Assembly (NCBI GenBank): GCA_951406725.2
Contig: OX597818.1
Span: 9,362,001 to 9,426,000, forward strand
Direction of reading: 5' to 3'
DNA length: 64,000 nucleotides
Source of the DNA: Octopus vulgaris
Lineage: Eukaryota
The notes beneath the pieces are model-generated. The model saw only the letters and a program-made list of their open reading frames with translations, did no database searches and was not told the DNA's origin. Positions 20,343 through 55,675 of the stretch are shown here, in pieces. The stretch's first letter is position 1. Every line of letters starts with the position of its first letter. The position numbers and the translations under genes were made by a program.

Positions 20343-20628
20343 GTTACTCGCCACATGAAAATGAATATTTCGTGTTAATGCTAGTTTAACCCCAGGCAGA
20401 TTCTCCACCAGCTAGTTATCAGTGCAACTTTGTACCCTTCATATACAATATATTGTTAATTGGGGGAGCGAATCTCCGCCAACCTCTAGAGGGTGGGGGT
20501 CGCTACCTCTGCTATCATTATATTGTATATAAAGTGTGCAGAGTCGCACTGATGACCAGCTGGCGGAGAACCTGACTGGAGTTACAATGATAGTAGCATG
20601 AAACAGCCATTTTGATGTAGTGACTGAC
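20343..20628. mobile_element. diverged fold-back element with hammerhead-like motif (CTGATGA 20549-20555 ... GAAAC 20600-20604)
   Basis: 20343-20457 is an imperfect reverse complement of 20513-20628. The right arm reads AGTCGCA-CTGATGA-CCAG..CTGG...GAAACA..TGTA-GTGACT. Followed by (TA)n. Confidence 0.55.
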
Positions 20629-20700
20629 ATTAATATATACATATATATATATATATATATATATATATATATATATATATATACACACACACACACATAT

Positions 20701-21155
20701 AGACACAGTATTGGCTGGGTGGTAAGAAGCTTGCTTCCCAACCACATGGATTTGGATGCTCTCTTAATGCGTGGCACCTTGGGTAAGTGTCTTCAACTAT
20801 AGCCTCGGGCGGACCAGAGCTTCATTAGTGGATTTGGTAGACGGAAACTGAAAGAAGCCCGTTGTAACTATCTATCTATCTGTATCTATATATGTGTGCG
20901 TGCAATAGTGTGTGTGTGTGTGTGTGTGTTTATGGTTGTATGTGTGTGTGTTTATGTGTGTCTGTGTATTTCTCCCCGCTATCGTTTAACAAATCGACGC
21001 TGTTGTGTTTATGTCACCGTAACTTAGAGGTTCGGCAAAAGAGACCGATAGAATACGTGCTAGGCTCCCGAGGGATAAGTCTTAAGGTCGATTTCTTCGA
21101 CTAAAACCCTTAAGGCGGTGCTCCAGTCAAATGACTGAGACAAGTAAAAGAATAA
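20701..21155 (+). mobile_element. tRNA-derived SINE family A
   Basis: TGGCTGGGTGGTAAGAAGCTTGC head, conserved core, internal (TG)n, 3' AAATGACTGAGACAAGTAAAAG. Confidence 0.9.
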
Positions 21156-21639
21156 ATGAATAAAACAATAAAACAATATATATCAAAGAAAGTGAGAAAA
21201 TGCTTTAAGAAAGTTATCATGAAGGCAAGGAAGACAATGTTTTATTTCAATTGCTACCGGTTGCAATTAATGAAGACTATCTTATCATGCAATAAGAAAT
21301 TAGAGAAATACGGTAAAATTAATTCAATTAATTATTCTTGAAAGCAGTGTGAATGTTGATATGGTTTTCTCCAAAATTCACACAGTAACGATCGTTGGTT
21401 CTCTATCATAGCTGCGAGGTCATTACAGTTTGAAGTGGCAGAGATCGATTTGTATATTTTTGTTGTTATAGCAGTAGTGGTTTTTTCGTTGTTTTTTTTT
21501 TTGTTTTTGTTTTTTCGTTACTGGCAATGTTGATATCAAGGAATGATTGATTAATAAAGATAGGACAAGGCGTGTGGTCGTGGTGGCAGTCAAAAACTGT
21601 GCTAAATGAAGAAATCCCCGATAAACTCAGATTGTAGCT

Positions 21640-23280
21640 TTCACTGTAATGAATCTTTGCACAAACATCCCTCATAACTGAATTCAAGCCATTAAAATCT
21701 GGGGAGATAACTGGACAGTTAATCTGTCACAAGGCCTAGAAAATGGATTAATCATTTCAGAGGGTAACTATTATGTGTTTAATGAGAACTTTATCAAATA
21801 TGTGGGACCGTGATGGGGAAGAAAACAACCACTTCCTTTGCAAATTTACTTTTTAGCTATCTAAAGACTACGATTTACTAAAACTTATTCAAGAGTATAG
21901 GAACACTTCTTTTAAATATATAGAAGAAACTGGAAAACATACGCCCATGATTGCCAAATGTCTGGGAACAAAAGCTGAATGGAACCAAATGAATTCTAAA
22001 CTGTAGTCAATGGAATTAACAAAAATATGAATTTCACATTGGAATATAGACTAACTCCCAAATTTAGACATCCTAATAAAGAAGTCAACAACCGAATAGA
22101 AAGCGATATTCCTTATAAACTTACAGACTCAAAGTAATATATATATATTTTCAGCTCCTATCATCCCAGATATCAAAATAAATCTCTTTCATAATCTATC
22201 CCAAATGATTGGTACAATAGTATCCGGAGAAAATTTTTGTATAATGAATTTTCGAGGGTATAAGGATACACTCATTGAAAAGAATATTAACAATATTTAA
22301 TAGATGACGAAGCACAACGAGCCAAAACTATTAATGTCTGGGTACCAACACAAAGCAAGCAAAGGAAGATACTGACATTGAAAGTGTTACCATAAATTTC
22401 TACCAACAATCCTAAAATCGATAACGCCTACCTAATTTTTCAAAATGTACAGACACAGAAAAGGGCCTCCAGGATGAGCCAACGTCTTCTAACTCAAACC
22501 AACATAAAAACCTAAACAGGACGTATAAATTTATGCAATAAAATTCGGATAACCGAATATTCGAGCCAAATAAGAATCAGGAATGTGTGTCAGACATAAA
22601 GTAACCTAATTTTACGATCTTCCTCTCATATCAATTTGCCGATGGCAAATCGCAACCACGACCTGTCAACAAAGAAACTACATTCATAACGAAATATCGA
22701 CCACTTCTTAACCACTGATGGAAATAAATGACTACTAAAACAACAACAACAACAACTACTACTACTACTACTACTACTACTACTACTACTACTACTACTA
22801 CTACTACCACTACAACTGCTGCTGTTGTTGATGCTACTGCTGCTGCTACTACTGCTGCCACTGGTTCTTCGGATGTTACTACTGTCACTAAAGTTACTTC
22901 TCCCATTCCTGCTATTGAAGGAGAGTAATCAAATACTCCCGCAACACCTACATCTTTTGCCATATCCACCGCTACTACTACTACAAAAACTACTTAAAGG
23001 ACTACTGCTGCTACTACTTTTGATAATAAGGGAGACAGAGTTTCTGATGCTGCAAATAATGGCATTCTTACTACCACAACTGACGTCTGGACCATATTTA
23101 CGAACCAGCGGTTAATATCAAATTCCCAGTAAGGAACAGTAGACCACTACCACAGCATCAACAAAAAGGAACAATTGATCAGTGCCACAGCTAAAAGTGT
23201 TATTACCACTATAGTAACCAAGCAGCTTCACGGGGGAAAGAAACAACCACCAGCATGTGCATTTTGTAAGAATACCATGT
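21640..23280 (+). mobile_element. decayed LINE ORF1/gag-like relic with Thr-rich tail and (CTA)n tract
   Basis: A-rich, broken coding-like frames (MIGTIVSGENF..FRGYKDTLIEK) followed by Thr/Ala-rich repeats at 22730-23000. Parallels 1150-2900. Confidence 0.3.
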
Positions 23281-24006
23281 GAAATTTCAAAGCAGCTCCC
23301 ATGAAAATTTCCTTGAATTAAATTTTAAGTTTTCTCCTTTTCGTTTTGCATTATTAAATAATTATTAACAACTGAAACCGGTAACATATTATGACAAGTT
23401 TGCAAATATTATCTTCCTTTTACTCGTGACAATGCATCATCTCGTGCGAAACAGATGCACTTAGAGAGGGAGAGAGAATAAGAAAGGGAAAGAGAAAGGA
23501 AAGGGAGAGTGGGAAAGAGAAGGAAAAGGAGAGAAAAGCCAAAACATAATCTGGGAGTTAACAGATATCAAATCAGTATATAAAAGAAAAGCAAATATGC
23601 ATAAAGGAATATTCATAGTACGAAGACAGGAGGAGTCCGGAATATAAAAACTTTTGAAAGATGGGGTGTAAATCATTGCAGTCCAGTATAAGATACAAAA
23701 GATGTTCTCAGTATTGATATAAGACGTATATTTGTAGGTCGATCGATGGTGTTACAGGCAAAATATCTTGGAAATTATAGAAAACGGTGGGAGCTAATTT
23801 CATGAAGAAAGACCTTATCTCATTTAACATATTATAAATCGCAACTCATACATACGCAATTATACACACACACTCGCACTCAGATATAAATACGTGTGTC
23901 TGTATATGTGTATGTATGTGTATGTACATGTATGTATATGTACATATACATGCATATATATTTACACACACACACACACACACACATACATATACATATA
24001 TATATA

Positions 24007-53927: not shown

Positions 53928-54003
53928 AATGCATACCTCGGTTTCGGCCTTTAACAAAAGAATTACGTACGTAATTCAAATGTCCGTGCTTCTTCAGTGC
54001 ATT
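53928..54003 (-). ncRNA. type I hammerhead ribozyme with 45-nt stem II
   Basis: Reverse complement of 54345-54420, with apical palindrome GAATTACGTACGTAATTC. Confidence 0.78.
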
Positions 54004-54344
54004 CGTTCATTGTAATGTAAACTGAAAACTAACCCCAGCTTTCCGTGCCAGTACAGACACGAGTATAGTTTTACCGATTACACTAGTGATAAAATTTCAA
54101 ATGTCTTGGTTCTGGCGCGCTAATAAATTCCTGAGGCGAAGGGCTGCAGTAAATAATTCACTGCGGTGGTGCTTACTACTAGAGAACGTATTTATTTCAA
54201 TATTTAAATAATGAGGGAGATAAATTAATATTAATTTTAATATCAATTTAAAACCAGTAGTCCAGCATACCGGTAAAACTATACACGTGTCTGTACTGGC
54301 ACGGAAAGCTGGGGTTAGTTTTTCAGTTTACATTTCAATGAACG

Positions 54345-54420
54345 AATGCACTGAAGAAGCACGGACATTTGAATTACATAAGTAATTCTTTTGTTAAAGG
54401 CCGAAACCGAGGTATGCATT
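54345..54420 (+). ncRNA. type I hammerhead ribozyme with 45-nt stem II
   Basis: AATGCA-CTGAAGA-AGC..GACA..GAATTAC/GTAATTC..TGTT..GCC-GAAA-CCGAG-GTA-TGCATT. Perfect 6-bp stem I. Confidence 0.8.
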
Positions 54421-54733
54421 TAATTCTGTTTTTTTAATATAAATTTTCATCTGTCCTGCCCGCCAAATTTGGTTCTGGTGTTCGCTATATTTTTCCCCTA
54501 GAGAATTTCCTTGTAGTTTGATCGTTGATGGTCTATTTCTAGCATACGGCCGACTCCCTAGCAGTAAGCCCTGCCAATATACACATATATTAGAATTTTC
54601 TCTGACTTCTCAGATTTTTTGTATGCTGGACTACTGGTTTTAAATTGATATTAAAATTAATATTAATTTATCTCCCTCATTATTTATATATATATATATA
54701 TATATATATAATTTATATATATATATTATTAAT

Positions 54734-55345
54734 AAGCAGCAAAAATATCACAAAAACTGTTACTCAGAGTTCCACGTCCCCGTTCGTCCGACAGTTTTGT
54801 TCAGAATGGAACAAAAAGAAGGTTATAAGTAAACATATACTGTTAGTTTAATGGATACACATTTGAAAATGGTTTTGTTTAATTGGTCCTTTCAACAAAC
54901 GGTCTTTCCAATGACCAGTTACATGCAATGAACAAAATTCGGTAAAAAATCATCTTATTTTAAAATCGAAGAAAATCTTTAATCAAAAATGTCCTTCTTT
55001 ATAAGCTATTTTTGATTTAAGGTTGTCTTAGATTTTAAAATAAGATGATTTCTACCGAATTTTGTTCATTGCATGTAACTGGTCATTGCAAAGACCGTTT
55101 GTTGAAAGGACCAATGAAACAAAACCATTTTCAAATATGTATCCATTAAACTAATCGTATACATTTGCTTATCACCTTATTTTTGTTCCGTTCTGAACAA
55201 AACTGTTCGACAAACGGGGACGTGAAGCTCTGAGTAACAGTTTTTGTGATATTTATGCTGCTTTTTAATAAAGCATATTACTCTACCTCTGGTATTCTAG
55301 TACTATTTTTTCCAACTTCTTTCGCATTTATGAGCTTACTCCGGT
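54734..55345. mobile_element. fold-back element with decayed hammerheads in both arms
   Basis: 54734-54990 is inverted to 55008-55263, with a tail to 55345. Motifs AAAACTGT-CGGACGA-ACG-GGGA-CGT-GGAA-CTCTGAG-TA-ACAGTTTT (minus, 54753-54798) and AAAACTGT-TCGACAA-ACG-GGGA-CGT-GAAG-CTCTGAG-TA-ACAGTTTT (plus, 55199-55244). Confidence 0.82.
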
Positions 55346-55675
55346 ATATATATATATATATATATATATATATATATATATATATATAGGAGAGTTCACG
55401 AAAAAAACAAAAGACGAAGACAGGTGGTGTATAAAACAAACAGATGTATTATTATAACGCTCAGGAATAGAAAAAAGCCTTTTACGTTTCAAGCCTATAA
55501 TATATATATATATATATATATATATATATATATATATATATATATATAATATTACATACATATACGTATCTAATGTAATTTTCTGAACTTTCAGATTTTG
55601 ATATGCTAGACCACTGGCTTTAAATTGATATTAATCAAATTAATATTCAATTTTTTACCATTATTATTTTAAATA

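Follow-up and report, generated by a model that had tools for sequence, protein, structure and literature searches.

The 64,000-nucleotide stretch of the Octopus vulgaris genome analyzed here (GenBank assembly GCA_951406725.2, contig OX597818.1, positions 9,362,001 to 9,426,000 of the forward strand; hereafter the window) holds copies of four families of short repeats, r49, r53, r20, and r63, and an element that encodes a reverse transcriptase (RT) and a GIY-YIG endonuclease (EN). Judged from their sequences, the four families are non-LTR retrozymes, that is, non-coding head-to-tail units with one predicted type I hammerhead ribozyme each. We consider it likely that a Penelope-like element (PLE), most probably one of the Hydra clade, supplies the RT-endonuclease that inserts their copies into (TA)n tracts, as their ends match the two-start footprint of PLEs. 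An earlier, sequence-only reading of this DNA had proposed non-autonomous hammerhead elements with PLE geometry; this holds for three of the five families it named (at 20343, 49115, and 53757, two of them related) and fails for the others.

Units, predicted ribozymes, and kinship of the retrozymes

We searched a 2.8-Gb assembly of 227 contigs for copies of each family and took the 40 best-scoring copies of each search as a sample, in which long, young copies are over-represented. A first look returned 2157 candidate matches for r49, 1367 for r53, 320 for r20, and 2289 for r63, which are not copy numbers, 40 having been scored per family. The r49 units are 364 bp long and seamlessly joined head to tail, while the period is 539–552 in r53 (15/30 loci), 353–362 in r20 (4/30), and 326–361 in r63 (17/30). 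Sequence upstream of the hammerhead wraps in all four families to the unit's own 3′ end, with no open reading frame (ORF); no ATG ORF longer than 42 aa was found in the units, to which 50 PLE proteins gave no match. Hydra remnants flank r49, r53, r20, and r63 at 3/60, 0/30, 3/60, and 4/30 loci, respectively, against 5/30 and 6/30 for coding families. As such remnants accompany both kinds, their presence alone does not separate retrozymes from the ends of coding PLEs, whereas continuity does. Median identity to the majority sequence is 98.6% for r49, 96.6% for r53, 90.2% for r63, and 87.4% for r20. The copies are dispersed across most chromosomes, and some r49 copies exceed two units, the longest measuring 812 nt. 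Contigs of four runs (three marked "RNA?", none recorded as RNA) cover retrozyme units, with ends, strand, and level not readable from them.

Apart from these counts, a 159-bp piece of r63 has expanded into a tandem array of more than 20 copies at one locus (L296, G000:C7:121946834-121951228), which was excluded from the r63 period, joint-fold, and arm-end counts. A fragment resembling the r53 tail lies at 55575–55680 (E 2e-4), and relatives of r53 also occur in L240 and L080.

A relaxed descriptor of the type I hammerhead matched six motifs in the window (37435+, 39949−, 48352+, 49333−, 49794+, and 54798−), compared with 0.33 on average in six shuffled versions of it, and a strict descriptor requiring long stems matched one. 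The r53 motif at 54345–54420 (+) was overlooked by the relaxed descriptor, yet it is conserved in its family, with CUGANGA in 26 of 28 and GAAA in 25 of 26 copies; for this tally and those of the PLE-end families below the anchors tolerated mismatches, so the denominators hold some false anchors. The full core with a perfect 6-bp stem I is present in 30 of the 45 distinct r49 copies, and 39 of the 45 carry a C at core position 4 (U4C), a core that is also found in r63. In r20 the predicted hammerhead occupies unit position ~146–190, where it was seen in 22 arms (natural examples are L280:1548-1613 and L283:1588-1653), and both window arms at 20343 end before it. The motif that had been read as a ribozyme at 20343 is a different segment: most of 30 family copies have CCGATAA there, with a triplet that is mostly GUG, and by eye CTGATGA occurs only in the window copy. 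By this comparison it is a chance look-alike. Rfam gave no hammerhead match, one of the searches listing the best 150 of 252 matches.

C4 is the majority state in r49, r63, and the Hydra family at 54734, and it is also seen in the L242 subfamily and in a Poseidon-type motif in L375; it recurs in unrelated elements.

According to their alignments, r20, r49, and r63 are one lineage. Compared end to end in pairs, r20, r63, and r49 share 200/380, 227/383, and 208/375 identical positions (53–59%; z 7.9, 13.8, and 9.8), and the ribozyme and both 3′ ends are in the same phase in all three. The families at 20343 and 49115, which had been described as unrelated in sequence, are thus members of a single lineage together with 63415, its third member, which lay outside the coordinates considered in that description. 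The r53 family is unrelated to this lineage, and the lineage itself showed no detected homology to the sampled PLE ends. Its GC content is 44–46%. The alignment and the joint fold were computed on majority sequences. For each of the three a rod-like fold is predicted, its tip formed by the ribozyme (z −8.4 to −9.0). A stem that joins the unit end to the start of the next unit surrounds the first 3′ end in every one of these single folds. The joint fold reaches −58 kcal/mol versus −6 ± 3 kcal/mol for column shuffles, with 21 double-sided changes versus at most 13 in 60 such shuffles. Across 11 natural ribozymes from five subfamilies, double-sided change was found at 11 of 12 pairs; stems I and III had been pre-selected to pair in this comparison, while the stem I extension had not and was 82% paired. 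In the lineage ribozymes, helix I has 6 bp and helix II ~4 bp, and helix III is palindromic; this layout agrees with the type I form described as canonical for animals (PMC4209133).

Additional subfamilies of the lineage were met incidentally (L186, L208, L242, L120, L230/L357). One of them (L357:115-376, L230:2456-2738, L231:9541-9758, L120:2111-2327) has more than 7 bases in the core between stems I and II, an atypical variant.

Insertion footprint and coding PLEs

The 63 r49 loci contain 105 arms, 82 of which terminate at position 364 or position 55 of the unit, while their 5′ ends are scattered and both orientations occur in 34 of the loci. Across the first 43 loci there are 55 fixed ends, of which 47 adjoin TA-type flanks. 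The same arrangement is found in r53 (40/44 arm ends in two zones, both orientations in 15/28), in r20 (36/55 at two sites, 16/30), and in r63 (35/50 at two sites, 17/29). The predicted cut, after position 184, is spanned by 73 of the 105 r49 arms, and 10 arms span two cuts. A PLE RT has been described to begin at two internal sites in vitro, a behavior called unique to PLEs, leaving the stretch between the two starts as a genomic tail; it extends both target strands, and ribozyme activity is dispensable for insertion (Frangieh et al., PMC11167929). It is the match of the retrozyme ends to this footprint that points to a PLE helper.

Among the 5′ ends of r49, 14 against 1.4 expected pile up at positions 145–150, the 5′ strand of stem I, with differing junction partners. 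This range was picked after inspection of the data, and 2 of 33 ends fell in it in the 20 loci added later. The pile-up was not repeated in r63 (0 vs 1.4) or in r53 (0 vs 0.9, with a query biased against it) and is unclear in r20 (3 vs 1.5). It could reflect a transcription start or TA/CTAG microhomology.

The coding element at 43690–48842 was correctly recognized by the sequence-only reading as an RT and GIY-YIG element with a 3′ hammerhead and an inverted copy, which is 279 bp long and 100% identical in self-comparison. Its assignment to Naiad does not stand, as the EN is C-terminal and a hammerhead is present. By its motifs the element belongs to the Hydra clade: the EN makes up the last ~150 aa of a 960-aa frame and has no CCHH, and the intact ORF carries RWR (a variant of RWK), DKT, a CxCx5C linker, CxxC, and CxH, in addition to the hammerhead and the (TA)n target. 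These are the traits described for Hydra elements (C-terminal EN without CCHH, CxCx5C, RWK, DKT, CxxC, CxH, hammerheads, (TA)n targets), while Naiads are described with an N-terminal EN, CCHH in the EN, DKA, and no canonical hammerheads, and Neptunes with CCHH and a CX2-5CxxC linker (PMC8557442). Naiad was accordingly rejected on EN position, the hammerhead, the absent CCHH, and DKT in place of DKA; Neptune was rejected on the CxCx5C linker and the absence of a cysteine pair between GIY and YIG. The ORF had no match among Pfam and PDB sequences.

In the window the ORF begins at aa 207 of the frame, which is intact in L231 (960 aa), with a second long frame in L232 (955 aa), and it has two 1-base indels within C runs near 44746 and 44902. 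The hammerhead (core at 48364–48370) combines a long stem II and a palindromic stem III with a weak stem I, and its cut is predicted after 48467. Family 3′ ends fall into two zones, near 48671 and near 48842–48860, and insertion is in (TA)n, a footprint like that of the retrozymes. All 150 scored EN matches are 91–100% identical and the 40 best 3′-end matches are all 100% identical, by which measure the family is very young.

A run of five Cs (44895–44905; L151-L180) is found in 17 of the 21 sampled copies of this element, frame-shifted relative to in-frame copies with six; it reflects either a homopolymer error made systematically in the assembly or a genuine common frameshift. Other Hydra families were encountered in L371, L375, L373, L385, and L390. 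Long open frames occur in some of them (806 aa in L371), every family has a long-stem-II hammerhead of its own, and they are candidate helpers as well.

The remaining short families are, on the evidence of their continuation into ORFs, 5′-truncated 3′ ends that derive from older coding PLEs (two Hydra families and one of Poseidon type). In the 37419/39788 family (CUGAUGA 13/21, GAAA 28/30), RT, EN, and hammerhead are collinear in L234 and likewise in L233 and L235 (three of five extended loci). On its 5′ side, the 39788 copy continues into the remains of a GIY-YIG domain at 40645–40362 (E 9e-7), and 855 bp of 39791–40645 match L234 at 73%; one duplicated locus was omitted from the comparison of family copies. 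In the 54734 family (CCGACGA 14/35), which has a CxCx5C linker, a common untranslated region (UTR) links the EN to the hammerhead in L112, L243, and L246, and parts of it recur in L244, L247, and L248. No unit period was found in either family. Upstream of the 34245 family (CUGUUGA 26/35, an A6 change), L250, L252, and L253 encode an RT thumb, now decayed, together with a GIY-YIG that contains two internal cysteines, which identifies the family as Poseidon/Penelope type; the 55388 fragment is 73% identical to a copy of the family at 34385. Core changes are present in both 54734 window motifs and in the 34245 motif. Continuation into a coding PLE was thus found for three of the six short families, while r49, r53, and r20 wrap onto themselves, and the description of all of them as non-coding is borne out at 20343, 49115, and 53757 and contradicted at 37419/39788, 54734, and 34245, which run into PLE ORFs. 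As for their proposed type I motifs, those at 37419/39788, 49115, and 53757 are supported by their families; besides the look-alike at 20343, the motifs at 54734 and 34245 have changed cores and 55388 has half a motif. Self-comparison confirmed the inverted geometry reported at 20343, 49115, 53757, and 54734. All assignments are compiled in Table 1.

Table 1. Elements assigned within the window from sequence comparison, in window coordinates.
Position	Strand	Feature	Basis or remark
20280..20634	.	Pair of truncated, inverted arms of the old retrozyme r20 (362-bp unit); family hammerhead missing here	
34385..34550	+	Poseidon/Penelope-type PLE 3′ end; variant hammerhead-like motif, decayed here	
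37419..37575	+	Solo 3′ end of an older coding Hydra family; hammerhead 37435-37520	
39788..40645	-	3′ end of the older Hydra family seen at 37419; hammerhead 39949-39864	
43690..43968	-	Inverted 5′-truncated copy of the PLE 3′ repeat, after (TA)n	Equals 48393-48671
43965..46227	+	Hydra-clade PLE ORF: RT, CxCx5C linker, C-terminal GIY-YIG without CCHH	Sequence motifs
46228..48842	+	3′ UTR and pseudo-LTR with hammerhead	Descriptor match, family ends
49115..49614	-	Inverted arm of retrozyme r49, holding 1.4 units of the 364-bp repeat; hammerhead 49333-49289 (U4C core, 6-bp stem I)	
49610..50066	+	Forward arm of retrozyme r49, made up of unit 49649-50011 and a 55-nt tail; hammerhead 49794-49838	
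53757..54272	-	Retrozyme r53 (542-bp unit), inverted arm; hammerhead ~54003-53928	
54271..54691	+	Forward arm of retrozyme r53, ~100-nt tail included; hammerhead 54345-54420	
54726..55345	.	Two 3′ ends of a third coding Hydra family, paired in inverted orientation; hammerhead 54798-54753, decayed	
55388..55500	-	Short 3′ fragment akin to the 34385 family; 3′ half of the motif only	
63415..63745	.	Retrozyme r63 (~351-bp unit), truncated, hammerhead missing in the window copy	

Other repeats share the window. A decayed Poseidon-type ORF at 13280–14190, 71–75% identical to L250, has lost the ribozyme region and retains its extreme 3′ end ahead of a (GATA)n tract, and another inverted pair (40738–41133, ~75% alike) is placed between a TA tract and the 39788 element. 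Remnants of a mariner-type transposase and of a LINE (long interspersed nuclear element) RT, and several copies of an abundant SINE-like (short interspersed nuclear element-like) repeat, are located among 37620–38910, 26443–27196, 12472–12909, 20699–21168, and 39364–39783.

Proposed mechanism and alternative explanations

In the mechanism that we propose, retrozyme copies of more than one unit would be transcribed, and slow, probably dimeric self-cleavage followed by ligation would give rise to circles. The PLE protein would bind the more-than-unit or circular RNA and nick a (TA)n tract, reverse transcription would start at either of the two internal sites 55–100 nt apart that delimit the PLE "tail", and priming on both target strands would generate the inverted pairs joined at their truncated 5′ ends. 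The template is expected to be uncut or re-ligated because the RT reads through the cleavage site, and a slow ribozyme, with U4C in r49 and r63 and a short palindromic stem III that would call for a dimer, would be compatible with an uncut template. Short palindromic stems III have been associated with cleavage as dimers (review PMC6765202), and retrozyme RNA circles have been reported in mussel and axolotl (PMC7229834). Circles would explain why the arrays do not shrink away, although uncut linear multimers also fit. Hydra is favored as the helper because of its (TA)n target, its young age alongside the young r49 copies, and its intact ORFs.

Several observations weigh against this proposal. 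Comparison of the retrozymes with PLE ends (eight single-copy pairs, and profiles against 47 and 210 loci) revealed no sequence link, which leaves the footprint as the one basis for assigning a helper; besides, more than one Hydra family is young (several are), and Poseidon-type ends likewise lie in (TA)n. With regard to the ribozyme, the 5′ ends of r49 show no clear excess at the predicted cut (4 vs 2.2 expected), the base of stem II is weak in r53, and 8 of 9 Xenopus retrozyme dimers remained uncleaved according to the main text of a preprint (bioRxiv 10.64898/2026.07.22.740005). U4C reduces hammerhead activity in vitro, though it nonetheless supports a viroid in vivo (PMC3088659). The bias of our sample toward long, young copies belongs on the same side.

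The most serious competing explanation, which we regard as unlikely, is that the hammerhead of these retrozymes is a near-silent passenger and that uncut linear read-through RNAs serve as templates without any circular RNA. The U4C majority in r49 (39/45), the 5′ ends that do not pile up at the cut site, and the finding that ribozyme mutants had no effect on PLE insertion in vitro (PMC11167929) all speak for it. On the other hand, compensatory change maintains stem I, its extension, loop II, and the palindromic stem III across subfamilies; besides, 5′-truncating copying of a linear RNA should only shorten arrays, yet copies of more than two units persist, which a circle would explain. A mobilizer other than Hydra, either a LINE or a PLE of Poseidon or Naiad type, is improbable. 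LINE and Poseidon remnants do occur within the window, and the two internal end sites are unlike LINE copies, which end at the RNA 3′ end. The sampled Poseidon-type copies are decayed. Octopus Naiad families, also (TA)n-targeting, have been listed, but cephalopod Naiads are described as long inactivated (PMC8557442), whereas r49 is young.

That every short family is the 5′-truncated 3′ end of a coding PLE is very improbable: this is what we found for the 39788, 54734, and 34245 families, in which an ORF or EN is joined to the motif, while for the four tandem families it is ruled out at the present sample, since their units wrap onto themselves. Hardly credible, finally, is amplification at the DNA level as palindromic DNA transposons (miniature inverted-repeat transposable elements, MITEs) or satellites, despite the palindromic look of the window copies and the 159-bp array at one r63 locus. 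The center of the palindrome differs at each locus, neither terminal inverted repeats nor length are fixed, 29 of the 63 r49 loci have a single orientation, the outer ends are RNA 3′ ends, arms can be longer than the unit, and copies are dispersed over most chromosomes; the sequence-only reading was right to set these elements apart from MITEs.

Beyond copying by a Hydra-clade RT-endonuclease, a more speculative history can be put forward only tentatively, and we have more doubt than confidence in it. An old, self-standing ribozyme lineage of ~360 nt with at least seven subfamilies, selected on fold and not on sequence, may have hijacked successive Hydra waves through a structural RT-loading signal over the unit junction and may cycle as circles with slowed U4C ribozymes, in which case the r49 5′-end pile-up would mark a transcription start.

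Relation to known systems and implications

Retrozymes and the proposal of a PLE helper have been in print since 2020. The animal non-LTR retrozymes described then (Cervera and de la Pena 2020, PMC7229834), among them mussel repeats of 350–390 bp, resemble the octopus families in having tandem units that are non-coding and carry a single type I hammerhead, in their size (350–364 bp), in a highly self-paired predicted circle, and in their coexistence with PLEs. They differ in that octopus copies mostly comprise one to two units, are dispersed, have arms in inverted orientation, end 3′ at two fixed sites, and target (TA)n; moreover, octopus families have U4C cores, the r53 unit is 542 bp long, and the GC content of the lineage is 44–46%. 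The main text of that paper neither mentions "octopus" nor describes cephalopod families. The same helper hypothesis has been put forward for Xenopus retrozymes, seen as PLE derivatives, in a preprint (bioRxiv 10.64898/2026.07.22.740005) whose evidence is co-occurrence and homology of pseudo-LTRs (24/57 families) and whose sampling covers vertebrates, three insects, and a coral, with no mollusc. The octopus evidence is instead the insertion footprint, and the 360-nt lineage has no detected pseudo-LTR homology.

Among PLEs, an octopus Hydra element, Hydra-1_Obim, has already been published (Craig et al. 2021, PMC8557442), and the window element shares with the Hydra clade the C-terminal EN, linker, DKT, CxxC/CxH, hammerhead, and (TA)n. 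Unlike the described Hydras, which are shorter than 3 kb, it has a unit of ~5.6 kb, a 960-aa frame, and hundreds of near-identical copies, and its hammerhead differs from that of Hydra-1_Obim. The Anolis Poseidon element PAc (PMC11167929) is similar in its two RT starts, its optional tail, and a ribozyme not needed for insertion; PAc is a coding element studied in vitro, while the octopus retrozymes are non-coding and their tails of 55–100 nt are inferred from genomic ends. Chlamys MRC1-type elements (PMC8557442) are likewise non-coding head-to-tail PLE passengers, but they share the 3′ end with their helpers and lack hammerheads. Cephalopod retrozymes and a retrozyme insertion footprint were not found in the literature, with Repbase, Dfam, subscription papers, and the 2020 supplements outside its scope. 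As far as this search reached, the cephalopod retrozymes and their insertion footprint are new, and the mechanistic evidence is better than that published.

Hitherto, the mobilizer of animal retrozymes has been argued from co-occurrence and partial homology, whereas the octopus retrozymes show the two-start tail of PLEs, their inverted arms, and their preference for (TA)n, with no homology to PLE ends detected. Because a young retrozyme family of near-identical copies and intact Hydra ORFs are present in one genome, the published in vitro PLE assay is directly applicable, with both start sites predicted at single-base resolution. In addition, the divergence of the subfamilies amounts to a natural map of covariation, showing what the RT requires for recognition. 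If the history of a fold-selected lineage outlined above is true, these retrozymes and an intact young Hydra protein would constitute the first helper-retrozyme pair that can be reconstituted.

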